From TPA_inf: Saccharomyces (taxonomy: Eukaryota), in NCBI GenBank assembly GCA_000146045.2, contig BK006946.2:320001-384000 (forward strand): 64,000 nt of DNA, given 5' to 3'. Under the pieces are notes generated by a model. The model saw only the letters and a program-made list of their open reading frames with translations. It had not been told where the DNA came from and did no database searches. Positions 1,351 to 59,215 of this stretch are shown piece after piece. The translations under genes were made by a program, and so were the position numbers. How positions within the stretch are numbered: position 1 is the first letter of the stretch; each line of letters begins with the position of its first letter.

Positions 1351-1847
1351 ACAACTATCAGAAGATTATCAATCTAATAGATCTTTAACGCCGCCTCAGT
1401 ACTTTCTGAACTGCAAGTAGAATATTTTTTTCTGGAATCGGCACATTCACATTCAGACGTATACGATGTCAGCACTTAGATTGCTACTATAGCAACTCAT
1501 TTATTATTAATCCCCATTCGTTCCGATATGGATGGCATATTATTACCTTTAAGAAAGGTGGAGTTCCAAAGATTCATCAATTTTACTGTTTATAGAAAAC
1601 GTTACGGAAAGATGAAAAGTAAACACCAAGGTCTCTTATGCCTTGACATAAAGAATACGGAATAGAATGATTGTAGACGCAACAAGATGAATAATTAATG
1701 GCAAATTATTATCCTATTAGATATAAATTACAGTCGCTTTAATGCGTGATTATAGAAAAGGTCCTTACAATATGCAGCCGGGTAAAGAGTGAAGTTTCCC
1801 GCCTCTGAAAAAGAGCAATACTAAAATAATCTGAAAAGAATTGGTGA

Positions 1848-3047
<1,200 letters not shown>

Positions 3048-3299
3048 TTCTGTGTTTGCCATTTTGTAGATAGAGAACTCCTTAACCAGAATACATTCTT
3101 GTACATATATATATACACGTTGGTACGATATGCGTTTACTTTATGTGTACTAAAATATATAAAAGTGAACAGAAGCATGTTCCTTGTTTACTACTATATC
3201 TTACCAGGAAACAGACAAAAAAAAAAAAGACTTGCTATATTTAAAGAGAACGCACATTTGTGAGGGGATAATAACACAAAGCAAAGTAATATAGGGTAA

Positions 3300-4187
3300 A
3301 TGGACCTCCTAAAATTCAGTTCTCTAGCTATATCAGAAATTAACTTCCTGCACGAGTCATCGTTTGACTCGATAGACCACTCTTGGTTTTTATTGATAGG
3401 TTGCAAATTGGATCAAGATGATGAAATTTACATCCCAATAAATGGTAATGAAGCAGAGTCTCAATGGTATATTGAAAAAGTTATACGAATCCCGATGCAG
3501 GAAAATGATAAAATAAATCAAGAACGCCTAGAAAGGAGAATTAACCTAACAAAAGTGACTCAAAAGGACATTTGTATACTGGGTATTCTTGATTTATGTC
3601 AGTTAGAAGAGGACGAAAATATCACTAATAAAGTGACGGAGAAAGTGCTCACCCAATTGACCGCCTTGGCATTGAAATATCTGATAAAATATAACGTGTT
3701 TCGCCAACATACCTCCTTCCAAGAAGCTGTCAATAGTTTAAAGGGTTATAAAATTGAAAATAGTGTACAGATAGGCGCGGAAATTATCCTTGATTTTCTA
3801 CAAGATAAAGTGCAAATTAAGGATGTAAATGACAGATACCAAATTCCCACACCTAATAATACCGTAGACCCAGGTTTTGATGAGTTTCAATTAATTGACA
3901 TGAAGGATAAAGAAATCAATATTCAAAAATATAATAATAATACCATAAGAAAATTACTCGAGAAGATTAATCGAATGATAATATTCTTGAAAAATTATGA
4001 TGCCACTGACAAGCCTTTCTCTTCCACGCAAGATGTAATACTTCGAAAAATATCAATGCTTGTAACACAACTGCAAAGAGGTGGAACAAGTGACATGAAT
4101 TACCTGCTGGATAACAAAATTAATGAAATAAAATTATTAGAAATTTCGTGTAAACAATGGGAAATTTCAAATATGTTAAAAAAATAA
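3300..4187 (+). CDS. CSI1: COP9 signalosome-interacting protein, 295 aa.
   Basis: ATG at 3300. The length and position between MRPL3 and PEX12 fit YMR025W. Confidence 0.65.
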   Translation: MDLLKFSSLAISEINFLHESSFDSIDHSWFLLIGCKLDQDDEIYIPINGNEAESQWYIEKVIRIPMQENDKINQERLERRINLTKVTQKDICILGILDLCQLEEDENITNKVTEKVLTQLTALALKYLIKYNVFRQHTSFQEAVNSLKGYKIENSVQIGAEIILDFLQDKVQIKDVNDRYQIPTPNNTVDPGFDEFQLIDMKDKEINIQKYNNNTIRKLLEKINRMIIFLKNYDATDKPFSSTQDVILRKISMLVTQLQRGGTSDMNYLLDNKINEIKLLEISCKQWEISNMLKK

Positions 4188-4235
4188 CTAGAATATATAT
4201 ATTACACAGAATTATTTTCTTCACTTCCTCCGTCA

Positions 4236-5435
4236 TCAGATTAGTAGCTTCCTAATACCTGTCACAACTTCCCATTTATTCGTGTGTTTGTTGTATGTAC
4301 AACCCAGCAGCTTTTTATTGGTAACGGGACAATGGCCTTCATTATTAACCAAATAGCTTATGGCACACGGGTAGCATGCCACGTATCCTGTTTCCAATAC
4401 ACAGGGGTTTTGTACAGTTTTTTCGCAAACGGGACAGGCCTCAGAAACTCCCTCTTTATCTTCCGTTTTGTCACTATGTGAGGAGAAAGGCGGCCTTGGA
4501 ATATCTTCATCCAAGTCATTGACCCTTTTCTGCAATTTAGTAGTCATGTCTTGTGTGGTCCACCATTGGTACACTCTTAGGACAAATATAAAAGTGGGGA
4601 AGAATTGCGAACCCATAAATGTTAAAAATCTGGGTATAATCGATAATTGTCCTTGCATTAGCGCGAAAATTGACGATATATTTGTTTTCCTTAGCCTATT
4701 ATCCATCCCTTTCGTCTCTTTGAGACCAGAGAGTTCTGACGATAGTGGTCTTACCGTTGTGTACTCTATCTTGAATAAGTATTGCAACAAGGAAACCGAC
4801 CCTGTTCTTTTAGTTAAAAATAATAATTTAACGAGTAAATTGGATAACGCTAATAATTTCTTAATAAATGGATAAATTCTTAGAAACGCTCTCTTGGGCC
4901 ATTTATTTTCAGTTTCATCGCTGCTGAATATATTATTCATTGATATTTTCTCTAATATTTCATCCAACTTCGCTGTGATATAGGGGAGAATAATTTTTTC
5001 CAAAAAAATAACACTCTTTTGCTGTTGATTCAGCTGCAAACCTTGGGGCCATTCACTCTGGCCCTTTGGATTTAAACATTGTGTTAAGGCAAGATTTCTG
5101 TCCCTCGAACTAAATAGTTGCAATCCATAAAACCGATCAATAAACGTAGAATTGTATGTCTTTAGATGATACCATTCAACAAACCCTTTTATCGCTTGAA
5201 ACCACTCAAAAAAGTACTTGTTCAGCCGCAAAGTATACCTGTTAGGGAAGTTCGCCACTAAATGATTTGCCAGTAGATAACGGATGGATGCGGGCAGTAA
5301 CGAATCGATTTCTTGTGATGACATTATCTCAAAGATAGTCGGATACAATGGTTCTAATCCCACCCCATTTCGACCGCTTGTTGAAGACCCTCGACTAGAT
5401 TGTCCTGCAGACGGTAGGTTTGAATAAAAGCTCAT
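4236..5435 (-). CDS. PEX12: Peroxin 12, a C3HC4 RING-finger peroxisomal import protein, 399 aa.
   Basis: The track starts this ORF at a GTG (5438). The first ATG is at 5435 and gives MSFYSNLPSAGQ.... The C-terminal Cys-rich RING (CPVCEK...CYPC) is present. Fits YMR026C. Confidence 0.85.
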   Translation of the reverse strand: MSFYSNLPSAGQSSRGSSTSGRNGVGLEPLYPTIFEIMSSQEIDSLLPASIRYLLANHLVANFPNRYTLRLNKYFFEWFQAIKGFVEWYHLKTYNSTFIDRFYGLQLFSSRDRNLALTQCLNPKGQSEWPQGLQLNQQQKSVIFLEKIILPYITAKLDEILEKISMNNIFSSDETENKWPKRAFLRIYPFIKKLLALSNLLVKLLFLTKRTGSVSLLQYLFKIEYTTVRPLSSELSGLKETKGMDNRLRKTNISSIFALMQGQLSIIPRFLTFMGSQFFPTFIFVLRVYQWWTTQDMTTKLQKRVNDLDEDIPRPPFSSHSDKTEDKEGVSEACPVCEKTVQNPCVLETGYVACYPCAISYLVNNEGHCPVTNKKLLGCTYNKHTNKWEVVTGIRKLLI

Positions 5436-5876
5436 CACTTGACGACTACCTTCCTTTCCTTTGCTTTATTTTCCCTGCTTATTCCCTTGCTTCTTCTGGA
5501 GCCTTCATGCAAAACCGTTTCTCTACCTAATGTGATTCTGCGGTAAGCATTGCTCTTAAGCATCTGAATGAGACGAAAGGATGACTCCACACTAAATTGT
5601 ACCTCTCTTCTCCAGTGACTGAATTGGAGGTTACCATTGCCAGTGACGGTAATCGTCCACATCGATGATTTCTTAGTATAACCCACACACCTCTCAGACA
5701 TAGAGGCCCCAGGTGCAACGTGATAGTATAACTGCCCGGAAGTAGAAATACAACTATTCCCTTCATATTAAAAGAATAAAACTTCATTTGAACTCTTTAA
5801 AATTTAGTGGTTCATTGTGGTCCTTGTGTAAACGGAAAAAAAGGATATTACGGTAGTGGGTAGTACATAACAAGAG

Positions 5877-36811: not shown

Positions 36812-37004
36812 CCTGTTGCTATTGCAGTTGATGTACTCTGCTTTTGAACAATAGAGGGGAAACCTGTGTACTATAAAATAGACTAAAACTATGTAACTTG
36901 TGTATGTTCTGATATGTATGACGCAGTCTTTGATAGTCCAAAACTCACCTAGACTGTGCTGTATTATTACAATTAAAGTTCTAAGTCTGTTGTGCATTAT
37001 CATT

Positions 37005-37336
37005 TGAGAAATGGGGGAATGTTGAGATAATTGTTGGGATTCCATTGTTGATAAAGGCTATAATATTAGGTATACAGAATATACTAGAAGTTCTCCTCAA
37101 GGATATAGGAATCCTCAAAATGGAATCTATATTTCTACATACTAATATTACGATTATTCCTCATTCCGTTTTATATGTTTCATTATCCTATTACATTATC
37201 AATCCTTGCACTTCAGCTTCCTCTAACTTCGATGACAGCTTCTCATAACTTATGTCATCATCTTAACACCGTATATGATAATATATTGATAATATAACTA
37301 TTAGTTGATAGACGATAGTGGATTTTTATTCCAACA
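37005..37336 (-). repeat. 3' LTR (delta) of Ty1 element 1.
   Basis: Has TG...CA ends and sits next to the TACCACCC polypurine tract on its internal side. The six-frame track gives the same LTR-internal ORFs as for the 5' LTR. Confidence 0.9.
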
Positions 37337-37358
37337 TACCACCCATAATGTAATAGAT

Positions 37359-40300
37359 CTAATGAATCCATTTGTTTGTTAATAGTTTGAATGTTTTTAT
37401 CGGAAGAGGTTTGGTCATTACGTCTGCAATATTCTTTTTGGTTTCGATATAGCATACGTGCAGATGATTTCCTGATACTTCATCTCTCAGTCTCATTGCT
37501 TTAGTACCAAAAAATCTGTTTCTAAATTTCTCTTCATTATTGGATATAATTATACTGATTGTAGATTTACTGTCGGTTAGTAATCCTTTGGTAATTGGTT
37601 TCTTGTCGAGTTCTTGTATCAGGTAACTTAGATTATTTAATAATGGGACAGATTCACTTATTGCGTGTATTTCTGCTTCCGTAGTTGAAGTACATGTTAA
37701 TGAAGCCTTGGTGGACTTTCCTCCAATTACTTTTCCATTAAGTAAATATATGTTGCCAATTTGTGATTTATAATACGGTTGGTTACCATACGATGCATCG
37801 CTTATAACAACTAATTTATTTGTTGGCTTAACAGGTTTGCTTTTGTGCCATATTAATTGCTTATCTCTCGTATTCCATATGAACTGTATCAATTCATATG
37901 TCATATCTAACACTTGCTTGGACGGAAATAGTATATGTTGTGCAAGTGTGTTGATGTAGTATAATAGGTCAAATCTAAATTTATATCCAACATATGATGC
38001 TAGACCTATCAGCTTTTGCATTTCATGTACCTTCATTTTGTAATCATCTTCTTCTAGCTCTAGTTCTTGCTGGTCTATATATAGACCTGGTTGACCTGGA
38101 GCGCTAAGTTTCCTTCCTTTTGGGTTCAAAGGTACGTTTAGTTTGGGTATTTTTTCAGTTAATGAGTTTTCCATACCCAATTTCATGTATTTACCTCTTT
38201 GGTATTTGATTTCCAAGCCAAGAATGTCATATTGAATTTCCTCATCACTTTCGCCTAGATTTATAATCTTGGTGTCGTATTGCATCTTAAGCTTGTCTAT
38301 AATTCTTTTGTTTGAATTTAGATTTTTGCTAAACAGTACCATATCATCTACGAATAAACAAATTGTCACTTGACTGTTTTCAAATACGCATGACCATCCA
38401 CGAACTTCTTCCATACCACACTGTTTTATCAGGTATGATTTGATAGTTTCGTACCAGTTCGCTCCACTTTGTTTCAATCCATAAAGTGATTTCTTCAAAC
38501 GTATCAACTTATCATTCATTCCTAAATGTGGTGGAGGTCTTATGTATAATTCTTCTTTGATGTCTGCATACAAATATGCCGAAGATATGTCTAATTGTGT
38601 AATATAGTAGTTATTGTCTAATGCAAGTGACAGGGATGTCATTAATGCATAGTGATGTACGGTATTGGATTGCATGCCTGAGTCGTAAGTGTCAGGATGC
38701 TGAATATCACCTCTTGCAACAAATCTAGCTTTATGAGTACCGTCACGTTTCCTGTTGAAGATAAACATTGAATTTATTACTCTTTTAGGGTCTATTTCTT
38801 TTCTGTCATAATATTTGTCAGTGTCCCAAGTTTTCATCTTCAACAGTTGATTGACTTCTTTGTGGTATGCCTCGATATATTTTTCTTTTTCTTTAATATC
38901 TTTATTATAGGTGATTGCCTCATCGTATCGTAAGGTTGTTCGTATTGGTTTGATTGATTTTACTGCTTTTACAGCTGCAATCAGGTGGATTCGTTTCTTC
39001 GATCTCGGAGGTTCTAAACTACGCATATTCTTAGTATTCCATGTGTCTCGTGATACCTTAATTTCAGTTTCATTATCTTCTAATGATCTTTTCTTACTGT
39101 TGATAGTAGTATAGGCATTAGAGTCACCAATACCACCCAAACTGGAATTAGTTTGACGAGAATTGATCGGTGGAAGTTCTTTAAAGGAGTCTGATAATTC
39201 GGTAGGAGGTTCTGGAGGCAGATCGGGAAGTGGAAGATCAGCAATTATAGATTCCTCTGTATTCTCCTTAGGACAGGTATCTGACGTTTTGATAGGAACG
39301 ACGTGGTGTAGTGAATTACTTTCTGATGAGGAAGTATCGATCGAAGGTGAACGGTGTATGATCCTTTTCTCAGTCTCCTGTTCGCTTGTCTGCGGAACAG
39401 TTTTATTATTGGTACCACCCGTACTGGATATTGGTACGTTTGTATGATTAGTCTCATTGTCACTGTACGAGTCTGAGTGTCTGAAATCTTTAGATTTACT
39501 GGCGTGCGACGACTCATGTGTGTTAGATTGGGACATGGGAGCAAGTAAAGGAACATCTAATCTATGCATACCACCCGAACCGGTACTCTCGATATCGGAA
39601 ATTTGGGGGGTGCTAGATCTCTTCTTAGATGGAAGAATATTAGATTCAGATATGTTGGGGTCAACTTCTCTGGGTGCGCGAATATTGGTTTTGGAAACAC
39701 GTTTCGAATCTTCAGTATGAGTTGACGGAGGTGTGGAATCGGTTGGACTCACAGCTTTTGAAAGGACATTTCTCAGTTGCTCAGGATGTAGTTCAATGTC
39801 AGATTGGAAGTCATGGTCAGATTCTATGTTAAGATCATTGGATTGTTGGATCTCATTTGACGCAATGAACGAATGATATGAAGCAGTTAAACGGTTTAAG
39901 TCTTCATCGAAAGTGAGTGCGTCGTAATTGAATTGATCTAATCTGGATTCCTTGCCCTGAAGAATAACATAGTTAGTTGTATCTACTGTCTTCTTTAAGG
40001 ACGGAAGATAGATGATATATCCATAAGAGTTTCGAGACGGATGTAGAGCGTAGCCTGGGATGCCACGAGGATGTATTTTGGAGTTAGGGTTGTGATCATT
40101 GACGATAACAGGTTGACCGAAAGGTAACAAAGTACTGATATCAAGTCCTGCCAAGCCAGCATGTTGTCTTGCAGATTTTTTGCTTTTAGGTGAAGCTAGT
40201 GAATTTCTCACAATAGTAGAAAATTCGATTGCAGAGAACCATAAATGGTTCGGTAAACCACTACATTGCAGTTGAGTACGGCAGTCATCTAATAAGGTAC

Positions 40301-41325
40301 GGTTTAGCCGTTCAGCGACTCCATGTGCTCGGGAATCCGCTGTGGTTGTATAGCATGGAGTTATACCATTTTTTTCAAGGAATTTATGGAGAGTTCTGTT
40401 AGTATACTCAGAACCACGGTCCATTTGTATAACTAAGACACTGGCCTGAAACTGGTTTTTAATAAAAGCTAGTATCGTAGTAAAAACATCGAGGATAGAG
40501 TCCTCGCGACGGTCGTGTAATGGATAAACCCAACGGAATTTTGTTGTCTCATCAGTAAATGAGATGAAATAGGATGGTGCACTTTTTGGTAGGTTGTGAA
40601 CTGGACCAAATATGTCAGTATGTAGGTATTGAAAGGGTTCGTATGAATTTTGGTATTTTAGTCGTGAACCTTTGATATGTCTGTGTTTGGTGCTTTTGCC
40701 GATTAAACAATCAGGACATTGATAGTCAATAGCACTAGACCAGTCGACATCTGATTCGTTAAAATACGTGATGGTGTTATTTTTAAGTGAGTATCGAATT
40801 GTCTGTGCATTGGCATGTGCAAGCATTCGATGAATGAAAGGATAAGGATATTTGCGTGTACTTTCACTTGTATGGACATTATTGATGGTGGGTACGGAGA
40901 TATTTGATGGAAGCAAGTACTTTTTAGATACCCAGTAAAAGTCTCCATATTTTACGATAGGTGCAAGTACAGTGCCGTCAGATCGTTCTAAGACGTTTTT
41001 GGTAAAGCATGCTGTGATATCTACTGCAGCCAATTCATTCAAACTGAGTAAGTCATAGGCTATGTTAGGAGTGTGCAATACCTTTATTGATGTTTTGGTG
41101 TTGTCCTGGAAGTGAAATTGTAGGTCACCAATAGCGTTAATTGGTATATTTCTTTTTTGAGCATCAACTACGTTTATGTCAGGATTAGATGATGCTGAGT
41201 GTATGTGATGAGCAGATCTTATAAGGGTTCGTGATGCTCCTGAATCAAGAAGGAGGTGTCCAGGGAGTTTATCATCAGAATGATTAGTGTGATTTACCGT
41301 AGATTCAGTAAGTTCCTGGCCTAAG
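37359..41325 (-). CDS. TYB: Ty1 TYB (protease, integrase, reverse transcriptase, RNase H). It is expressed as a TYA-TYB fusion through a +1 ribosomal frameshift at CTTAGGC (plus-strand GCCTAAG at 41319..41325).
   Basis: A 1239-aa open frame holds the protease motif DSGAS-like region, integrase HHCC and DDE motifs, the RT YVDDM motif (FVDDMVLFS) and RNase H. It overlaps the end of TYA by about 40 nt in the +1 frame. Confidence 0.85.
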
Positions 41326-42627
41326 GTGAAGGTCGTGTGTATTCTTCAATTGAATCGGTTCAGTAGTCGATCCTCTTATGAGATCGTTATCAGGGCCGGG
41401 AGAGTTATTAAATGTGGATACGTTATGAGCCCTGGCTGTTCTTGATTGCGAATTATTTGGTTTTTGGGAATTCCGAGTTATGGATTTGGGTTTGGTTGTA
41501 TTCGTATAGGTGCGAGAGTCTTTCTTCTCATCACTCGGACTTCTCCTATGAGTAGATTTATTACGTTTTGATTCCTGTTGTTCTTCATACATAGAATGTA
41601 TGTCTGAAAACAGATCAGCAACTGTCATATGTATACATCGATGACGTGCGTAGCGTAAAAATTTGTACTCGCCAGATAGACCTCTCATAATGAATTGGCA
41701 TGCTACCTTGTTATTGATAGGAATACCATTGTTGTTTAGTCTGTCAAGAATGTTTGTGACTTCTGCTTCAAATGCATCTGCAGGTGTACTTCCATTATAA
41801 TGCAAAGTTGCTAGGGTCGTAATGTCATTTACCTCTTGAGTATCAGACTGCATTTTGTTAATGCTTTTGGAAAGAATTTTCATGATATCTGTATAATCAA
41901 CAGATAAGATGTCTTTAACCCAGGGGGGTAAGAATTGAGATGGAGCAAATAGTTGAAAGGTGTGACATAAGAAGGTGAGTTCGTCATCAGTCATCTGACG
42001 TACGGCTTTTCTTGTTGCTGTCGGAATAATATCACCGAGATTCGAATTTTGTAAAAATTTAATGTATATTTTAACCCAATTGAGAAAGTCATTAGGTGAG
42101 GTTAAGATTGGCGGTGGTCTGACATGTTGATTAGTGGATGTCATATTAGACTTTGCTGAGGATGAATCAGGAAATGAATTACCTGACTCAGGTGACGGGG
42201 TGTTCAAATGTGTTCCAACATATTGTGGATATTGTGTAAACTGTGATTGTGCCCCAGGTGGAGCGTACATAGGTGACATTTGATAAGGTGGATACGGCAT
42301 CAAGGATGGGTGCCCGTATACTGGCCAGCCAGAAATATTGGCTTGTTGGGTATTCATCATGCGCTGCTGTGGGTACGGCCCATTTTGTGGCAATGGTACT
42401 TGAGCAGCTTGAGGAGAGGCATGATGATGGTTCTCTGGAACAGCAGATGAGAGAGGTGTTGTTGGCTGTTGAGAATTAGCCTGAGTGGAAACCTTCTCAC
42501 ATTCTTCTGTTTTGGAAGCTGAAATGTCTAACGGATCTTGAGTTGTTTGGACTTCTTTAGAAGTAACCGAAGCACAGGCGCTACCATGAGAAATGGGGGA
42601 ATGTTGAGATAATTGTTGGGATTCCAT
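41305..42627 (-). CDS. TYA: Ty1 TYA (Gag), 440 aa, the divergent subfamily variant.
   Basis: Starts inside the 5' LTR as [26 protein letters not shown] and ends ...LHLRPGTY at the frameshift heptamer. Confidence 0.85.
42577..42586 (-). other. Ty1 primer-binding site, complementary to the 3' end of initiator tRNA-Met.
   Basis: TGGTAGCGCC (plus-strand ggcgctacca) lies directly next to the U5 end of the 5' LTR. Confidence 0.8.
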
Positions 42628-42918
42628 TGTTGATAAAGGCTATAATATTAGGTATACAGAATATACTAGAAGTTCTCCTCAAGGATATAGGAATCCTCAA
42701 AATGGAATCTATATTTCTACATACTAATATTACGATTATTCCTCATTCCGTTTTATATGTTTCATTATCCTATTACATTATCAATCCTTGCACTTCAGCT
42801 TCCTCTAACTTCGATGACAGCTTCTCATAACTTATGTCATCATCTTAACACCGTATATGATAATATATTGATAATATAACTATTAGTTGATAGACGATAG
42901 TGGATTTTTATTCCAACA
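42587..42918 (-). repeat. 5' LTR (delta) of Ty1 element 1.
   Basis: 332 bp and identical to the 3' LTR. It contains the TYA ATG. Confidence 0.9.
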
Positions 42919-43063
42919 TCATTTTCAATGAAGCTGTGACCTTGGCATTCGCACCGCTTGACACTACAGGACGAATAAATTCCATGTTCGGGTGGTGGCT
43001 AGAGGTACATATGCGGTAAATGTACTGTATAGCCCAGCATGTTTTTCTTAACAATCCAAGTTT

Positions 43064-43135
43064 GCCATCTTAGTATAGTGGTTAGTACACATCGTTGTGG
43101 CCGATGAAACCCTGGTTCGATTCTAGGAGATGGCA
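43064..43135 (+). tRNA. tH(GUG): tRNA-His (GUG), 72 nt. G-1 is added after transcription.
   Basis: GCCATCTTAGTATAGTGGTTAGTACACATCGTTGTGGCCGATGAAACCCTGGTTCGATTCTAGGAGATGGCA matches yeast tRNA-His. Confidence 0.9.
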
Positions 43136-43363
43136 TTTTCTTTTTTTTTCAAAGAAAAGAAAAAGGGAAGGCAACAAACGACATGAATTATTGTCTTTTT
43201 CAAAAGGATGTAATTATCGCAGCAGGTCTATGAAGGGTCCCTTTTCTCTTTTTTATCACTTGTTCCATCTATAATTTTATACTCAAAAATTTAACAGGTT
43301 AATTACACTAAATGCATTACAAATTTGTATTTGATTCTATATATAGTTTCGTTATATAATAAC

Positions 43364-50636: not shown

Positions 50637-52444
50637 AATAATTTTTCACTAATCTTCAAAAACAAATGGGGTAACCCGTACAAGAGTTATTAAAACCCAA
50701 AATGACAAAATCGCGACAATTCAATCCTACTTAATTAGCAATAACATACTAGCGGTAGAGCTACTATCACATGTTGAACCTTGAATGCTCAATTCATTGT
50801 ACTCAATACTGCTATCAAAAGAAAAAAAATGTATTAATTATATTCTTGTCAAAATCAATTTTACACTATAAGAGGAAAATGTTCTTCAGTCCTAGTAACA
50901 TTAGTTTTCTCCCTTTGCTAGAGACTTTACATAATATCCTAGAAGGTAAAATTCGATAATACAGCAGTAAAGTCGTATATTGGTAGCAATCCTTGGTGAC
51001 GCTGACTTTTTTTTTTTGTAATTTTATTGTTTAGTTCATGATAAAAAACTTCAAATCACTTTTAATCTGGTAGACAGAGAAAACAAATCGAAACGAAAAT
51101 AGAGAACTACGAATAAAAAAATATAAGTGGAGAAGATCGTCACTACGCATTAAACAATATTGATCGCTCAATGCCAGTACTGCGCGTAAAAGTTTAGTAA
51201 CTTAACGATTTAGGCACAATTTGAGAAAAATTTCGCCCTGCAGTAAGTATGTTATTCAGTACGATATAAAGCTGAGGTTTTATGCTGGCAACGTTCAGAT
51301 TTTTTAGGTTATCAGCAATGTTAAAATATTAAATAGGATACTTTTATTGTTTGAGACCACCCTCAATGCCAGATATGTTAAACGCTTTTTTCTGGAGTGA
51401 GGTATCATAGAAAAAGGCTCGAGTACATCAAGCACTTAAAGGTTCAACACTCTACTGTTACTTCTTTAAGCTAAGCTATTCATACATAATAGTCCATCAA
51501 AGTGGCTCAAATTGCGCATACAGTGTAAAAATGCGTTCAGGGAATAACGATGTCAAGCAGCGTGTGAAAATTGGACACGTTGAATAATAAACTTCCTGGA
51601 AACCGTCGCGCGCCACTGCTGTCAGAAAATAGTAGACTACTTAATTTTCAATTCATATTTAGCCTGCTTTTTGATCTATGAAATCGCCCACTCTAAATCA
51701 GCGGTGTTTTTGCACGGTTTGTAATTTTAACTTCATTATATGTATTATTCGGTGACTTCACTAAAAAAGAAGGATCTATGCAATATTCTTATCTTCTATT
51801 TTTTTTCTTTTCGATTTTTGAAGTTAAACCTTCGTAATGAACAGATTCGAACAGTATACAGCTGATGACAATTACATGTTAAACTTTCATTGATGATAAT
51901 GGCACGCACTCCACCTGTTAAAGAGGCAGAACGAAGAACCTTTGCTTATAACATAGGTCAGTGTATACTGGATAATAGTATCGAATAACCAGCATAATAT
52001 TTTCTCTGGAAATACCTTTAAGGGGTTTTTAGAAGAAAAACAAATCCTAGTGCAACTTGCAAGTCATCAAAAATAATCTATCTTATCTCTATATATATAT
52101 TTGTGTATTTTATATTTTATGACAAAGCTAGAAATATAAAATCAGATACCGCAATAGAAGATATTTCAAATAATAATACCAATCTCATAGCTCAAAACAG
52201 GCACTAAGGGAATACTGAAGAAAGTAATGTCTAGGAGTTAGTATAGCTTGAAGTTGCCATCGGTGTCATTTAGGTAGATCTATCTAGATTACGCGCAGCC
52301 CTCAGAAAAGCAAGTGATTTCCGAAGTTTCAACCTACCCAGACTATTCACATAAGGTTAATTTATGATTGAACAGTTCAAATAAATCTGCGCCATTCATG
52401 AAGATGATTCGATACCGCAATATGCTGCTAAAGTGCTAAAAAAA

Positions 52445-52518
52445 TGATTTCGCCCAGGATCGAACTGGGGACGTTCTGCGTGTTAAGCAGATGCCATAAC
52501 CGACTAGACCACGAAACC
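52445..52518 (-). tRNA. tV(AAC): tRNA-Val (AAC), 74 nt, no intron.
   Basis: The reverse complement GGTTTCGTGGTCTAGTCGGTTATGGCATCTGCTTAACACGCAGAACGTCCCCAGTTCGATCCTGGGCGAAATCA matches yeast tRNA-Val(AAC). Confidence 0.9.
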
Positions 52519-52696
52519 AGGTTTTATTGAAAAATTGCATCTAAAATAACCTATACTAATAAATCTTCTAATAAATCTTCTAACTCTTCGCTGTTCTATG
52601 TGATATCGTTGATAGTTAGGTTTTCGTGTTGAAATAATCAATTACATTTATTGACTGGTTTAATATTAATATATTATCATATACAGTGTAAGAAGG

Positions 52697-53034
52697 TGAG
52701 ATATATGTGGGTAATTAGATAATTGTTGGGATTCCATTGTTGATAAAGGCTATAATATTAGGTATACAGAATATACTAGAAGTTCTCCTCGAGGATATAG
52801 GAATCCTCAAAATGGAATCTATATTTCTACATACTAATATTACGATTATTCCTCATTCCGTTTTATATGTTTATATTCATTGATCCTATTACATTATCAA
52901 TCCTTGCGTTTCAGCTTCCTCTAACATCGATGACAGCTTCTCATAACTTATGTCATCATCTTAACACCGTATATGATAATATATTGATAATATAACTATT
53001 AGTTGATAGACGATAGTGGATTTTTATTCCAACA
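52697..53034 (-). repeat. 3' LTR (delta) of Ty1 element 2.
   Basis: The plus strand reads TGAGATATATGTGGG...TTATTCCAACA, with the adjacent TACCACCC polypurine tract. Confidence 0.9.
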
Positions 53035-53056
53035 TACCACCCATAATGTAATAGAT

Positions 53057-56000
53057 CTAATGAATCCATTTGTTTGTTAATAGTTTGAATGTTTTTATCG
53101 GAAGAGGTTTGGTCATTACGTCTGCAATATTCTTTTTGGTTTCGATATAGCATACGTGCAGATGATTTCCTGATACTTCATCTCTTAGTCTCATTGCTTT
53201 AGTACCAAAAAATCTGTTTCTAAATTTCTCTTCATTATTGGATATAATTATACTGATTGTAGATTTACTGTCGGTTAGTAATCCTTTAGTAATTGGTTTC
53301 TTGTTAAGTTCTTGCACAAGGTGACTGAGGTTATTTAATAATGGGACAGATTCACTTATCGCGTGTATTTCTGCTTCCGTAGTTGAAGTACATGTTAATG
53401 AAGCCTTGGTGGACTTTCCTCCAATTACTTTTCCATTAAGTAAATATATGTTGCCAATTTGTGATTTATAATACGGTTGGTTACCATACGATGCATCGCT
53501 TATAACAACTAATTTATTTGTTGGCTTAACAGGTTTGCTTTTGTGCCATATTAATTGCTTATCTCTCGTATTCCATATGAACTGTATCAATTCATATGTC
53601 ATATCTAACACTTGCTTGGACGGAAATAGTATATGTTGTGCAAGTGTGTTGATGTAGTATAATAGGTCAAATCTAAATTTATATCCAACATATGATGCTA
53701 GACCTATCAGCTTTTGCATTTCATGTACCTTCATTTTGTAATCATCTTCTTCTAGCTCTAGTTCTTGCTGGTCTATATATAGACCTGGTTGACCTGGAGC
53801 GCTAAGTTTCCTTCCTTTTGGGTTCAAAGGTACGTTTAGTTTGGGTATTTTTTCAGTTAATGAGTTTTCCATACCTAATTTCATGTATTTACCTCTTTGA
53901 TATTTGATTTCTAAGCCAAGTATGTCGTACTGAATTTCGTTATCACTTTCACCCAGATTTATTATCTTTGTATCGTATTGTTTCTTGAGTGTTGTTATGA
54001 TTTTCTTATTTGCATTTAAGTCTTTGCTGAACAATATCATATCATCAACGAATAAGCAAATTGTTACTTGACTATTCTTAAATACGCATGACCATCCACG
54101 AACTTCTTCCATACCACACTGTTTTATCAGGTATGATTTGATAGTTTCGTACCAGTTCGCTCCACTTTGTTTCAATCCATAAAGTGATTTCTTCAAACGT
54201 ATTAACTTATCATTCATTCCTAAATGTGGTGGAGGTCTTATGTATAGTTCTTCTTTGATGTCTGCATACAAATATGCCGAAGATATGTCTAATTGTGTAA
54301 TATAGTAGTTATTGTCTAATGCAAGTGACAGGGATGTCATTAATGCATAGTGATGTACGGTATTGGATTGCATGCCTGGGTCGTAAGTGTCAGGATGTTG
54401 AATATCACCTCTTGCAACAAATCTAGCTTTATGAGTACCGTCACGTTTCCTGTTAAAGATAAACATTGAATTTATTACTCTTTTGGGGTCTATTTCTTTT
54501 CTGTCATAATATCTGTCAGTGTCCCAAGTTTTCATCTTCAACAGTTGATTGACTTCTTTGTGGTATGCCTGGATATATTTTTCTTTTTCTTTAATATCTT
54601 TATTATAGGTGATTGCCTCATCGTATCGTAAGGTTGTCCGTATTGGTTTGATTGATTTTACTGCTTTTACAGCTGCAATCAGGTGAATTCGTTTCTTCGA
54701 TCTCGGAGGTTCTAAACTACGCATATTCTTAGTATTCCATGTGTCTCGTGATACCTTAATTTCAGTTTCATTATCTTCTAATGATCTTTTCTTACTGTTG
54801 ATAGTAGTATAGGCATTAGAGTCACCAATACCACCCAAACTGGAATTAGTTTGACGAGAATTGATCGGTGGGAGTTCTTTAAATGGGTCAGGGAATTCGG
54901 TAGGAGATTCTGGAGGTAGATCAGGGAGTGGGAGATCAGCGATGATAGATTCCTCGGTATTCTGTTCAGAAACAGTAGTTGGCGTTTTGATAGGAACAAT
55001 ATTGTGCGATGAATTATTTTCCGGTGGAGAAGCATCGATTGAAGGTGAACGGTGTATAATCCTTTTCTCAGTCTCTTGGTCACTTATCTGCGGAACAGTT
55101 TTGTTGTTGGTACCACCCGTACTGGATATTGGTACGTTTGTATGATTAGTCTCATTTTCACTGTACGAGTCTGAGTGTCTGAAATCTTTAGATTTACTGG
55201 CGTGCGACGACTCATGTGTGTTAGATTGGGACATGGGAGCAAGTAAAGGAACATTTAATTTATGCATACCACCCGAACCGGTACTCTCGATATTGGAAAT
55301 TTGGGGGGTGCTAGATCTCTTCTTTGATGGAAGAATATTAGATTCAGATATGTTGGGGTCAACTTCTCTGGGTGCGCGAATATTGGTTTTAGAAACACGT
55401 TTCGAATCTTCAGTATGAGTTGACGGAGGTGTGGAATCGGTTGGACTCACAGCTTTTGAAAGGACATTTCTCGGTTGCTCAGGATGTAGTTCGATGTCAG
55501 ATTGGAAGTCATGGTCAGATTCTATGTTAAGATCATCGGATTGTTGGATCTCATTTGACGCAATGAACGATTGATATGAAGCAGTTAAACGGTTTAAGTC
55601 TTCATCGAAAGTGAGTGCGTCGTAATTGAATTGATCTAATCTGGATTCCTTGCCCTGAAGAATAACATAGTTAGTTGTATCTACTGTCTTCTTTAAGGAT
55701 GGAAGATAGATGATATATCCATAAGAGTTTCGAGACGGATGTAGAGCGTAGCCTGGGATGCCACGAGGATGTATTTTGGAGTTAGGGTTGTGATCATTGA
55801 CGATAACAGGTTGACCGAAAGGTAACAAAGTACTGATATCAAGTCCTGCCAAGCCAGCATGTTGTCTTGCAGATTTTTTGCTTTTAGGTGAAGCTAGTGA
55901 ATTTCTCACAATAGTAGAAAATTCGATTGCAGAGAACCATAAATGGTTCGGTAAACCACTACATTGCAGTTGAGTACGGCAGTCATCTAATAAGGTACGG

Positions 56001-57023
56001 TTGAGCCGTTCAGCGACTCCATGTGCTCGGGAATCCGCTGTGGTTGTATAGCATGGAGTTATACCATTTTTTTCAAGGAATTTATGGAGAGTTCTGTTAG
56101 TATACTCAGAACCACGGTCCATTTGTATAACCAAGACACTGGCCTGAAACTGGTTCTTAATAAAAGCTAGTATCGTAGTAAAAACATCGAGGATAGAGTC
56201 CTCGCGACGGTCGTGTAATGGATAAACCCAACGGAATTTTGTTGTCTCATCAGTAAATGAGATGAAATAGGATGGTGCACTTTTTGGTAGGTTGTGAACT
56301 GGACCAAATATGTCAGTATGTAGGTATTGAAAGGGTTCGTATGAATTTTGGTATTTTAGTCGTGAACCTTTGATATGTCTGTGTTTGGTGCTTTTGCCGA
56401 TTAAACAATCAGGACATTGATAGTCAATAGCACTAGACCAGTCGACATCTGATTCGTTAAAATACGTGATGGTGTTATTTTTAAGTGAGTATCGAATTGT
56501 CTGTGCATTGGCATGCGCAAGCATTCGATGAATGAAAGGATAAGGATATTTGCGTGTACTTTCACTTGTATGGACATTATTGATGGTGGGTACGGAGATA
56601 TTTGATGGAAGCAAGTACTTTTTAGATACCCAGTAAAAGTCTCCATATTTTACGATAGGTGCAAGTACAGTGCCGTCAGACCGTTCTAAGACGTTTTTGG
56701 TAAAGCATGCTGTGATATCTACTGCAGCCAATTCATTCAAACTGAGTAAGTCATAGGCTATGTTAGGAGTGTGCAATACCTTTATTGATGTTTTGGTGTT
56801 GTCCTGGAAGTGAAATTGTAGGTCACCAATAGCGTTAATTGGTATATTTCTTTTTTGAGCATCAACTACGTTTATGTCAGGATTAGATGATGCTGAGTGT
56901 ATGTGATGAGCAGATCTTATAAGGGTTCGTGATGCTCCTGAATCGAGAAGGAGGTGTCCAGGGAGTTCATCATCAGAATGATTAGTATGATTTACTGTAG
57001 ATTCAGTAAGTTTCTGGCCTAAG
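53057..57023 (-). CDS. TYB: Ty1 TYB (Pol), expressed by +1 frameshifting at CTTAGGC (plus-strand GCCTAAG at 57017..57023).
   Basis: A 1239-aa frame that is nearly identical over its C-terminal two thirds to the TYB of element 1. It has integrase, RT (FVDDMILFS) and RNase H. Confidence 0.85.
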
Positions 57024-58325
57024 ATGAAGGTCGTGCTTATTGTTCAATTGAATCGGTTCAGTAGTTGATTTACTGATGGAATCGTTGTCCGTGCTGGGAG
57101 AGTTATTAGATGTGGATACATTGTGAGCCCTGGCTGTTTTCGATTTCGAATTATTTGTTTTTTGAGGATTCCGAGCTATAACTTTGGGTTTGGTTGTATT
57201 CGTATAGCTGCGAGAATCATTCTTCTCATCACTCGGATTTCTCCTGTAATTAGGTTTGCTGTTTCTCGATCCCTGTTGTTCTTCATAAATAGCATGGATA
57301 TCTAAGAACAGTTCAGCGACTGTCATATTTAGATGTCGATGACGTGTGTAGCGTAAAAATTTATATTCGCCAGATAGACCTCTCATAATTAATTGGCATG
57401 CGACCTTGTTATTGATATGAATGCCATTATTGTTCAGTCTGTCGATAATGTTTGTGACTTTTGTTTCAAATGCATCTGCAGGTGTACTGCCATTATATTG
57501 CAAATTTGCCAGGGTCACAATGTCGTTTGCCTCTTGGGTATCAGATTGCATTTTTTCAATACTTTTGGAAAGAATTTTCATGATATCCGTATAATCAACG
57601 GATAGGATGTCTTTGACCCAGGTAGGTAGGAATTGAGAGGGAGCAAATATTTGAAAAGTGTTATACAAGAAGGTGAGTTCATCATCAGTGATCTGACGTA
57701 CGGGTTTTCCGTTTACTGTCGGAATAATACCACCGAGATTCGAGTTTTGTAAAAATTTGATGTATGTTTTAACCCAATTTGGAAAATCATTAGGTGAGGT
57801 TAACATTGGTGGTGGTCTGACATATTTTTTAGTGGATGTCATATCAGAGTCCGCTGAGGATGAATCAGTAAATGTATTACCTGACTCAGGTGATGGAGTG
57901 CTCAGAGGCGTTCCAACTGATGATGGATACTGCGGAAACTGTGATTGTGGCCCAGGTGGAAAGTACATAGGCGACATTTGATAAGGTGTATACGGAATCA
58001 TAGATGGGTGTCCGTAAAATGACCAACCAGATGGATTGGCTTGGTTTTGGGTCATCATGCACTGCTGTGGGTACGGCCCATTCTGTGGAGGTGGTACTGA
58101 AGCAGGTTGAGGAGAGGCATGATGGGGGTTCTCTGGAACAGCTGATGAAGCAGGTGTTGTTGTCTGTTGAGAGTTAGCCTTAGTGGAAGCCTTATCATAT
58201 TCTTGAATTTTGGAAGCTGAAACGTCTAACGGATCTTGATTTGTGTGGACTTCCTTAGAAGTAACCGAAGCACAGGCGCTACCATGAGATATATGTGGGT
58301 AATTAGATAATTGTTGGGATTCCAT
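57003..58325 (-). CDS. TYA: Ty1 TYA (Gag), 440 aa, canonical Ty1 type.
   Basis: Starts [48 protein letters not shown] and ends ...HLRPETY. This matches the reference Ty1 Gag as I remember it. Confidence 0.9.
58275..58284 (-). other. Ty1 primer-binding site (TGGTAGCGCC).
   Basis: Lies directly next to the U5 end of the 5' LTR of element 2. Confidence 0.8.
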
Positions 58326-58622
58326 TGTTGATAAAGGCTATAATATTAGGTATACAGAATATACTAGAAGTTCTCCTCGAGGATATAGGAATCCTCAAAA
58401 TGGAATCTATATTTCTACATACTAATATTACGATTATTCCTCATTCCGTTTTATATGTTTATATTCATTGATCCTATTACATTATCAATCCTTGCGTTTC
58501 AGCTTCCTCTAACATCGATGACAGCTTCTCATAACTTATGTCATCATCTTAACACCGTATATGATAATATATTGATAATATAACTATTAGTTGATAGACG
58601 ATAGTGGATTTTTATTCCAACA
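58285..58622 (-). repeat. 5' LTR (delta) of Ty1 element 2.
   Basis: 338 bp and identical to the 3' LTR. It contains the TYA ATG. Confidence 0.9.
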
Positions 58623-58639: not shown

Positions 58640-58700
58640 TGAGAAACAGTCACCAGATTTAGGGGAAGCTGAAATGCAATGATTGATAATGTAATAAGAA
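58640..58700 (+). repeat. Internal fragment of a delta (Ty1/Ty2 LTR), plus orientation, diverged.
   Basis: TTGAGAAACAGTCACCAGATTTAGGGGAAGCTGAAATGCAATGATTGATAATGTAATAAG aligns to the middle of a delta (…ATGAGAAATAGTCATCTAAATTAGTGGAAGCTGAAACGCAAGGATTGATAATGTAATAGG…). Confidence 0.6.
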
Positions 58701-58737
58701 GCGAGAGGGAAAGTATAAAAAGGAAGTGATCAATTTG

Positions 58738-59061
58738 TGAATAATTTGATAACCGTTGGGATTCTATTGTTCGCAAGGGCTTTATTTTATTATGTGTACA
58801 GAATATAATAAAATTTCCCCTGAGAGATATACCAATCCTCAAATTGGAATCGATACTCCTATATAATACAATTACAATTATTTCTCCCTCCCTTTCGTAT
58901 GTTTCATTATCCTAGTACATTATCAATCCTTATATTTCTGCTTCCATTAAATTTTACGACTGTTTCTCAATGTTTAGATCATCTTCTTACACTGTATATG
59001 ATAATGTACGAGTGGCATGAATACTACTGAACAGATGATATTTTATAGCTTCATTCCAACA
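58738..59061 (-). repeat. Near full-length diverged solo delta LTR, minus orientation.
   Basis: It lines up along its whole length with the plus-strand reading of the Ty1 LTRs above (…aaccgttgggattctattgtt…cctcaaattggaatcgatac…gtatgtttcattatcctagtacattatcaatcc…ctgtatatgataat…tcattccaaca), with many substitutions. Confidence 0.6.
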
Positions 59062-59096
59062 GAAAGAACATAAAGTAATATCGTTACGTAAAACTA

Positions 59097-59215
59097 TCGA
59101 TTCCCTTTTGACGATTCCTACATCCTCGAGAAGAAGTTCTAGTATATTCTGTGTACCTAATATTGTAGGCTCTAACAACAATGGAATCCCAACAATTAAT
59201 CATCTTGATTATTTT
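59097..59215 (+). repeat. 3'-portion fragment of a delta LTR, plus orientation.
   Basis: GATTCCTACATCCTCGAGAAGAAGTTCTAGTATATTCTGTGTACCTAATATTGTAGGCTCTAACAACAATGGAATCCCAACAATTAATCATC aligns to the U3-R end of a delta (…GATTCCTATATCCTCGAGGAGAACTTCTAGTATATTCTGTATACCTAATATTATAGCC…AATGGAATCCCAACAATTATCTCAACA). Confidence 0.6.

Follow-up and report, generated by a model that had tools for sequence, protein, structure and literature searches.

Mosaic similarity between two neighbouring Ty1 elements of yeast chromosome XIII: YMRCTy1-3 is very probably an intact, recent Ty1' insertion beside a canonical Ty1 of recombinant ancestry

The Ty1' subfamily has been defined since 1998. Canonical gag gives rise to the copy-number-control factor p22/p18, and it is accepted that exchanges between elements of this kind arise by template switching in reverse transcription. 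Ty1/Ty2 hybrid elements were reportedly described by Jordan & McDonald (1998/1999). How Ty1', canonical Ty1 and Ty2 are related as mosaics was worked out in 2020. Ty1' was found to be ancestral and canonical Ty1 to be a derived recombinant, the canonical copies of S288c being recombinant with Ty1' in pol (PMC7055915). The divergent regions, which are the same as those found here, are gag, mid-pol and a Ty2-derived 3' pol/LTR, and three full-length S288c elements carry a Ty1' gag, although the text does not name YMRCTy1-3 (PMC7055915). Experiments have used YBLWTy1-1 as the reference for Ty1', and it is for this copy that retromobility of Ty1' has been demonstrated (PMC10951436). The restriction systems of the two subfamilies are both Gag-derived and do not cross-react (p22/p18 versus Drt2).

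The window, by which we mean the whole stretch of 64,000 nucleotides that was analysed, comes from chromosome XIII of S. cerevisiae S288C, as seen from exact protein matches to Ty1-MR1 Gag, NUP116, CSM3, ERB1, FAR3 and STB2. It contains two full-length Ty1 elements, both on its minus strand; no further Ty1 was found in the window. Element 1 (37005..42918, 5,914 bp) is YMRCTy1-3 (YMR045C/YMR046C), a catalogued Ty1' retrotransposon whose Gag is exactly UniProt Q04215 / NP_013760.1 (Ty1-MR1). Element 2 (52697..58622, 5,926 bp) is YMRCTy1-4, a full-length Ty1 with a canonical gag and a mosaic pol; one accession for its exact Gag, DAA09950.1, lies between ERB1 (DAA09948.1) and FAR3 (DAA09951.1). 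An earlier note on this DNA had recognised the common orientation of the pair, and the TYA N-termini and U5 ends that it quoted are present verbatim in both elements. Its placing of the second element 41 kb away was mistaken: their start positions differ by 15,692 bp, and 9,778 bp lie between them.

Element 1 is intact over its whole length and is collinear with the Ty1' contigs L011-L013. Its LTRs have the boundaries TGTTGG...TCTCA, and the 5' LTR (42587..42918, minus strand) and the 3' LTR (37005..37336, minus strand), of 332 bp each, are 100% identical. The target-site duplication is AATGA in element orientation, with the upstream copy at 42919..42923 and the other at 37000-37004. The primer-binding site TGGTAGCGCC (42577..42586, minus strand) is directly 3' of the 5' LTR, and the polypurine tract GGGTGGTA (37337..37344, minus strand) adjoins the 3' LTR; both signals have the same sequence in element 2. 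In Ty1, this primer-binding site is complementary to initiator tRNA-Met. TYA (gag; 41305..42627, minus strand) is of Ty1' type and encodes 440 aa (Pfam TYA, E=3e-225), and its ATG falls within the 5' LTR (window 42627, element nt 292). The +1 frameshift heptamer CTTAGGC, which leads from TYA to TYB (41319..41325, minus strand), is in frame at nt 1594, and the fused Gag-Pol of 1,755 aa is open throughout across it. The open TYB (pol) frame (37359..41078, minus strand) has Pfam rve, SH3_retrovirus and RVT_2 matches, with integrase placed before reverse transcriptase (rve at residues 147-247, RVT_2 at residues 765-972). The insertion is 144 bp upstream of a tRNA-His(GTG) gene (43063..43136, plus strand), and Ty1 usually inserts in the few hundred bp upstream of genes transcribed by Pol III. 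Element 1 has all the features of the Ty1 family (Ty1/copia, Pseudoviridae): LTRs with a target-site duplication, primer-binding site and polypurine tract, frameshifted TYA-TYB and a site upstream of a Pol III gene. Judged from the sequence, its open reading frames and cis signals would be compatible with transposition activity.

Element 2 likewise has identical LTRs, of 338 bp each (52697-53034 and 58285-58622, minus strand), and a target-site duplication, CCTTC; it is 177 bp upstream of a tRNA-Val(AAC) gene (52444..52519, minus strand). Exact empty sites for both insertions are found in nine of ten other assemblies, where the site of element 1 has a single copy of AATGA, and both sites are occupied in a second S288C-like assembly (L015). 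Because the LTRs are identical within each element, the target duplications intact and the sites empty in nine of the ten assemblies, the data support two young insertions, made independently and from different source copies. The earlier note had anticipated both the identity of each LTR pair and recent insertion from different master copies. Collapse or chimerism of Ty copies in assembly or annotation would be an alternative origin for such a pair, Ty elements being a classic source of misassembly, and the metagenome contigs L009-L013 do show LTR-collapse permutations. Each element here, however, has unique flanks and matching 5-bp duplications, the proteins are identical to curated entries for S288C, the empty sites in other strains are precise and L015 is likewise occupied. 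An artefact was rejected on these grounds and its likelihood is close to nil.

The original survey of the subfamily, Kim et al. 1998, reportedly counts YMRCTy1-3 among the Ty1' elements. Membership of element 1 in the Ty1' subfamily, which the earlier note had suggested, is supported by several comparisons. Its Gag is 99.1% identical to that of YBLWTy1-1 (4 of 440 residues differ), against 77.5% to canonical Gag, and shares a 90% cluster with Ty1-BL. In a set of 148 elements, the Gag dimer-1 residues 266/270/312 were reported to distinguish the subfamilies in 100% of cases (PMC12530519). Element 1 has V266/T270/F312 (VTF) at these positions and lacks the A266/V270/L312 (AVL) of canonical Ty1 (Ty1c), which is the combination found in element 2. 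Throughout pol and the LTR, element 1 is also of 'pure' Ty1' type, with metagenome contigs as the references. The Ty1' comparison DNA was obtained through the cluster representative P0002; lookup in the contig index of the YBLWTy1-1 Gag (P0010) and of the exact element 1 TYB ORF gave 0 matches. SGD element names were sought in the supplements of Czaja et al. and are absent there, internal 'S288c_f' identifiers being used instead.

The similarity of the two elements is strongly mosaic and its breakpoints are sharp. Over nt 313-1672 of element 1 the two differ at 208 positions, but over nt 1673-3510 at 17 (Fisher p = 1e-60). Block A (41247..42606, minus strand; nt 313-1672), comprising the U5 end, the whole of gag and ~80 nt beyond the frameshift site, is 14.5% divergent from element 2. 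The TYA proteins, which had been described as different throughout, differ at 99 of 440 residues (77.5% identity). The 5' half of pol is 99.1% identical (0.9% divergent). Pol also contains three divergent blocks (14-19%), all given on the minus strand: block B in the integrase C-terminal/linker region (39174..39408; nt 3511-3745; 19%), block C in the reverse transcriptase region (38178..38381; nt 4538-4741; 18.6%) and block D in the RNase H region (37590..37662; nt 5257-5329; 13.7%). In block C element 2 is of Ty2 type, 2.9% from Ty2. Blocks C and D are separated by a 515-bp tract with 0 differences (nt 4742-5256). At the protein level, Gag-Pol residues 454-917, the N-terminal ~40% of TYB, have 0 amino-acid differences, and 41 of the 43 Pol differences are located between residues 918 and 1674, mostly clustered at residues 1011-1147, 1416-1462 and 1668-1674. 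Near-identity had been ascribed to the C-terminal two thirds of TYB; it is the N-terminal part that is identical, and the C-terminal stretch holds the three divergent blocks. A TYB peptide quoted as common to the pair has three residue differences (Y/H, I/V, D/N), not one.

A pairwise mosaic is silent on which partner is recombinant, and the locus serves as a check on reasoning of this kind. The earlier note took element 1 to be a recent hybrid, in which a divergent TYA/U5 master switched template onto a co-packaged canonical Ty1 RNA for its 3' TYB. Such an event would fit the sharp breakpoints between the ~14.5% divergent gag/U5 and the 0.9% divergent pol 5' half, and the identical LTRs place any exchange before insertion or at the time of it. 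The evidence against it can be summarised as (i) the same combination of gag and pol recurs in three independent Ty1' contigs (L011-L013), from which element 1 differs by 0-2.5% per 200-bp window and at 22 positions overall; (ii) of 477 informative sites, 466 are of the Ty1' type in element 1; (iii) the pol 5' half is at <=1% from element 1 in 9/9 other canonical-gag elements examined, and since it is common to every canonical element examined it belongs to the Ty1 backbone and reflects no private exchange; (iv) at the 3'-pol sites that distinguish the subfamilies element 1 is always Ty1'-type, whereas element 2 changes type; (v) published phylogenies put Ty1' as ancestral (PMC7055915). A hybrid origin of element 1 is very unlikely on this evidence. 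The three contigs were independently assembled from short reads of unrelated metagenomes and have one Gag sequence in common; they may be a collapsed consensus of closely related copies. They show the structure of element 1 to be subfamily-wide, with which an older recombinant history of Ty1' would still be compatible. A Ty1/Ty2 hybrid was likewise rejected for element 1: its distance from Ty2 is 12-48% whichever block is compared (36% in gag), and none of its segments is of Ty2 type. As a separate observation, a four-site patch of element 1 (nt 3100-3131) has the allele common in canonical copies and could be a tiny conversion tract.

By these comparisons element 1 is not a recent chimera but standard Ty1' from end to end, and the subfamily-discordant blocks sit in its canonical neighbour, YMRCTy1-4. 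The alleles of element 2, 317 of them non-Ty1' and 159 of Ty1' type, fall into blocks: gag and blocks B and D are canonical, block C is Ty2-type and the remainder, including most of U3, is Ty1'-type. This patchwork agrees with Czaja et al. 2020. An S. paradoxus origin of gag was tested only indirectly, the outgroups being L024 (a divergent contig of the Ty1 family), L025 (an element from S. mikatae) and L026 (a contig at greater distance). Element 2 is the nearer to L024 in gag (9.9%, against 15.0% for element 1) and in block B (10.6% against 26.4%), and in the shared pol 5' half the two are equidistant from it (12.3% and 12.5%). Among the nine other canonical-gag elements the 3'-pol block pattern differs copy by copy, and several other canonical copies have Ty2-type 3' pol and U3. 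The type of the LTR U3 follows that of the 3' pol end beside it, which is what the scheme of reverse transcription would lead one to expect.

The two elements are direct repeats that are 99% identical over ~1.8 kb; they flank ERB1, CSM3 and NUP116, and deletions mediated by them have been observed (PMC4349867). Ectopic gene conversion after insertion between these repeats, 15.7 kb apart, could in principle have given near-identical tracts such as nt 4742-5256. Ectopic recombination is known, deletions having been recovered with YMRCTy1-3 and YMRCTy1-4 at the breakpoints (PMC4349867), and the 3' pol of element 2 is more Ty1'-like than that of most canonical copies. The non-Ty1' alleles of element 2 across nt 4751-5500 (2/33, 0/45 and 11/47 in successive bins), however, are exactly the pattern of L008, a canonical element that lies elsewhere on the chromosomes, beside RAD4/SPT2. 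The pattern common to element 2 and L008 was therefore spread by retrotransposition, not made locally, and the identical LTRs of element 2, with a Ty1'-like U3 at both ends, point to a replicative origin. Local homogenisation is highly improbable, and as the source of the identical tracts, conversion between the neighbours was rejected because of the pattern shared with L008. We see a similarly slim chance that the block pattern of YMRCTy1-4 came in part from exchange with YMRCTy1-3, or that the patch at nt 3100-3131 of element 1 is the reciprocal trace. If true, the pair would be a natural example of two subfamilies with non-cross-reacting restriction factors recombining through closely linked copies.

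We propose, with high confidence, that YMRCTy1-3 is an intact and recent Ty1' insertion and that its mosaic similarity to YMRCTy1-4 results from the recombinant ancestry of canonical Ty1. Element 1 would have integrated upstream of the tRNA-His gene in the S288C lineage. Canonical Ty1 would consist of a Ty1'-like backbone that received a foreign gag together with the U5 end, a foreign mid-pol block, and Ty2-derived 3'-pol and LTR sequence. In the 3' half of pol, individual canonical copies would later have exchanged sequence with Ty1', and YMRCTy1-4 is one such patchwork. The present analysis itself shows the anatomy, the subfamily assignment, the block structure, the insertion polymorphism and which of the two is discordant. 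The exchanges would have occurred before each copy inserted, either as reverse transcriptase switched templates among co-packaged RNAs or through gene conversion involving cDNA. Both routes would fit the sequence alike, and both are drawn from the literature and from the retroviral replication scheme; S. paradoxus as the probable source of the foreign gag is likewise taken from the literature. The original observation of a mosaic is right in outline and already known, and at a locus of the reference yeast genome it has little weight as a discovery. Of the two partners, the one labelled 'canonical' is the derived patchwork and the one labelled 'divergent' the conserved ancestral type.

Element 1 resembles Ty1' (reference YBLWTy1-1) in its VTF dimer-1 residues, intact ORFs and frameshift site, and the types of its LTR, gag and pol match independent Ty1' contigs over the whole length. 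Its differences from Ty1' are point-like only (4 of 440 Gag residues from YBLWTy1-1, 22 nt from the Ty1' contig consensus); YBLWTy1-1 occupies another chromosomal site, whereas element 1 is upstream of tRNA-His on chromosome XIII. With canonical Ty1 (Ty1c; Ty1-H3 type; here YMRCTy1-4) it shares architecture, primer-binding site, polypurine tract, frameshift site, protein lengths, a pol 5' half that is 99.1% identical and a target upstream of a tRNA gene. It differs from canonical Ty1 in the 14.5% divergent gag/U5, in having VTF rather than AVL and in the three divergent blocks of pol, and the LTR of YMRCTy1-4 is 6 bp longer. As for Ty2, it is element 2, not element 1, that has a Ty2-type block (nt 4538-4741), 2.9% from Ty2.

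Two Ty1 elements, and no third, lie in the window, both on the minus strand. Element 1 (37005-42918, 5,914 bp) is bounded by two identical 332-bp LTRs and a 5-bp duplication (AATGA); element 2 (52697-58622, 5,926 bp) has identical 338-bp LTRs and the duplication CCTTC. Common to both are the primer-binding site TGGTAGCGCC, the polypurine tract GGGTGGTA, a 440-aa TYA, a CTTAGGC +1 frameshift site and a 1,755-aa Gag-Pol read-through, with Pfam domains in the order TYA, integrase core, RVT_2. The TYA N-termini and U5 ends quoted in an earlier note on this DNA were found verbatim, and the LTR pairs are identical as it had described. The 41 kb it placed between the elements is in fact 15,692 bp from start to start, with a gap of 9,778 bp.

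Exact-sequence look-up put the window on chromosome XIII of S. cerevisiae S288C: the 440-aa minus-strand ORF spanning 41305-42627 is identical to the database entry 'Transposon Ty1-MR1 Gag' (Q04215, NP_013760.1, DAA09945.1), and the ORFs around it match NUP116, CSM3, ERB1, FAR3 and STB2 of that strain exactly. The accession of element 2 Gag (DAA09950.1) falls between those of ERB1 (DAA09948.1) and FAR3 (DAA09951.1). In SGD nomenclature, element 1 is YMRCTy1-3 (YMR045C/YMR046C) and element 2 is YMRCTy1-4 (YMR050C/YMR051C). YMRCTy1-3 and YMRCTy1-4 have been tabulated as directly oriented repeats of chromosome XIII, and a deletion with breakpoints at the two is listed in a published data set (PMC4349867). 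As direct repeats (37005-58622) the copies surround tRNA-His, NUP116, CSM3, ERB1 and tRNA-Val, and they have in common approximately 1.8 kb that is 99.1% identical, as well as a 515-bp stretch free of differences.

The mosaic similarity between the elements is real. Pairwise alignment yielded 346 differences, clustered in blocks (numbered here in element-1 nt). Block A (313-1672), which spans the U5 end, the whole of gag and around 80 nt beyond the frameshift site, is 14.5% divergent, whereas the pol 5' half (1673-3510) is 0.9% divergent, a disparity far above chance (Fisher p = 1e-60). Further downstream, block B (3511-3745, 19%), block C (4538-4741, 18.6%) and block D (5257-5329, 13.7%) are separated by segments with 1.3% divergence (3746-4537) and zero differences (4742-5256), and followed by one with 0.4% (5330-5582). 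A few more differences lie in U3 of the LTRs, which also differ by 6 bp in length. The proposed near-identity of the C-terminal two thirds of TYB does not hold, as 41 of the 43 Pol differences fall at Gag-Pol residues 918-1674, mostly clustered at 1011-1147, 1416-1462 and 1668-1674; residues 454-917 have no amino-acid differences.

Element 1 is correctly labelled Ty1'-like, because its Gag is 99.1% identical to that of YBLWTy1-1, the S288C copy serving as the experimental Ty1' reference (PMC10951436), and 77.5% identical to canonical Gag, and because of its diagnostic residues. Three dimer-1 Gag residues are reported to be 100% diagnostic over 148 elements (canonical A266/V270/L312, Ty1' V266/T270/F312; PMC12530519); V/T/F is found in element 1 and A/V/L in element 2.

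The note had gone further and made element 1 the hybrid, a divergent TYA and U5 joined to a canonical TYB. This names the wrong element: it is the 'canonical' element 2 that is a patchwork, and the 'divergent' element 1 belongs to the conserved type. The comparison drew on nine further elements with Gag identical to that of element 2 (L001-L006, L008-L010; other S. cerevisiae assemblies and loci), Ty2 copies neighbouring two of these, and three Ty1' contigs from unrelated metagenome assemblies (L011-L013). In the joint alignment, element 1 differs from the Ty1' contigs by 0-2.5% in each 200-bp window, and from their consensus at just 22 positions. For every canonical-gag element, divergence from element 1 is 12-17% in gag and at most 1% in the pol 5' half; their 3' pol halves are patchworks of ~0% and ~11-21% blocks, arranged differently from copy to copy. 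At 477 informative sites, defined by one allele common to the Ty1' contigs and a different one in two or more canonical copies, element 1 carries the Ty1' allele at 466, whereas element 2 carries 317 non-Ty1' and 159 Ty1' alleles in contiguous blocks. Four clustered sites in element 1 (nt 3100-3131; window 39788-39819) have the canonical-common allele, unlike L011-L013; this patch may reflect either conversion over a short tract or ordinary Ty1' polymorphism.

Between nt 4501 and 5500, the Ty2 allele is the non-Ty1' allele at 156 of 167 sites, and in block C element 2 is 2.9% from Ty2, element 1 21.6%. A divergent Ty1-family contig (L024, ENA metagenome, 5,653 bp) is equidistant from the two subfamilies over their shared pol 5' half, at ~12% (12.3% and 12.5% from the two elements), and nearer canonical Ty1 in gag (element 2 9.9%, element 1 15.0%) and in mid-pol block B (10.6% and 26.4%); it may come from an S. 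paradoxus/Ty101-type lineage. Across the canonical copies, the U3 of the LTRs agrees in type with the neighbouring 3' end of pol. This is expected, since reverse transcription makes both LTRs from the U3 of the RNA 3' end and the R-U5 of its 5' end. The exact 3'-pol pattern of element 2 recurs in L008, at another locus adjoining RAD4/SPT2; it has therefore spread by retrotransposition rather than arising locally.

Among ten other assemblies with the same CSM3 allele, both sites are precisely empty in nine, where the target pentamer occurs once, and one, S288C-like, is occupied. Given these empty sites and the identical LTR pairs, both insertions are recent and restricted, among the assemblies sampled, to the S288C lineage. 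The zone upstream of tRNA genes is the usual Ty1 target; element 1 lies 144 bp upstream of tRNA-His and element 2 177 bp upstream of tRNA-Val. Element 2 entered an old, degenerate solo delta, whose halves (delta nt 43-86 on one side and 92-151 on the other, ~84% identity) now flank it. Just outside lies a further pair of old delta fragments, oppositely oriented, and the whole makes a nest of LTR relics upstream of tRNA-Val (52661-52703, 58640-58699, 58733-59008, 59075-59198). In L014 (13537-17651), another S. cerevisiae assembly, the ERB1-FAR3 interval is ~1 kb longer than in other empty-site strains and the element 2 site is empty, and thus a different insertion occupies the same region upstream of tRNA-Val.

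The standard account of Ty recombinants is that reverse transcriptase switches template between co-packaged RNAs, and this is compatible with the identical LTRs and intact duplications. Gene conversion by cDNA would give the same product; since sequence does not distinguish the two, the mechanism is inferred.

Ty1 Gag and integrase filed under 'Streptococcus uberis' (protein clusters P0012 and P0016, e.g. WP_461249341.1) are most likely yeast DNA contaminating a bacterial assembly. In two metagenome contigs (L009 1083-12307, L010 40-11563), Ty2 is followed directly by canonical Ty1 with one LTR in common, either a real tandem array or an LTR-collapse assembly artefact. A 440-aa JGI metagenome Gag (P0092) matches canonical Gag over residues ~41-200 and Ty1' Gag over ~201-440; YNLCTy1-1 and Y12_f109 have been described as within-gag recombinants of this type.

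The phenomenon has been described before. Czaja et al. 2020 (PMC7055915) described Ty1' as the ancestral S. cerevisiae subfamily, the sole one found in wild strains, with three full-length S288c elements carrying its gag. In their account, canonical Ty1 arose when recombination brought S. paradoxus sequence (gag and part of mid-pol) and Ty2 sequence (3'-pol/LTR segments) onto a Ty1'-like element; many S288c canonical copies, Ty1-H3 among them, are further Ty1' recombinants within pol. Block A corresponds to the gag, block B to the mid-pol and blocks C-D to the Ty2-derived regions of that study, and the picture of element 1 as the hybrid is therefore inverted.
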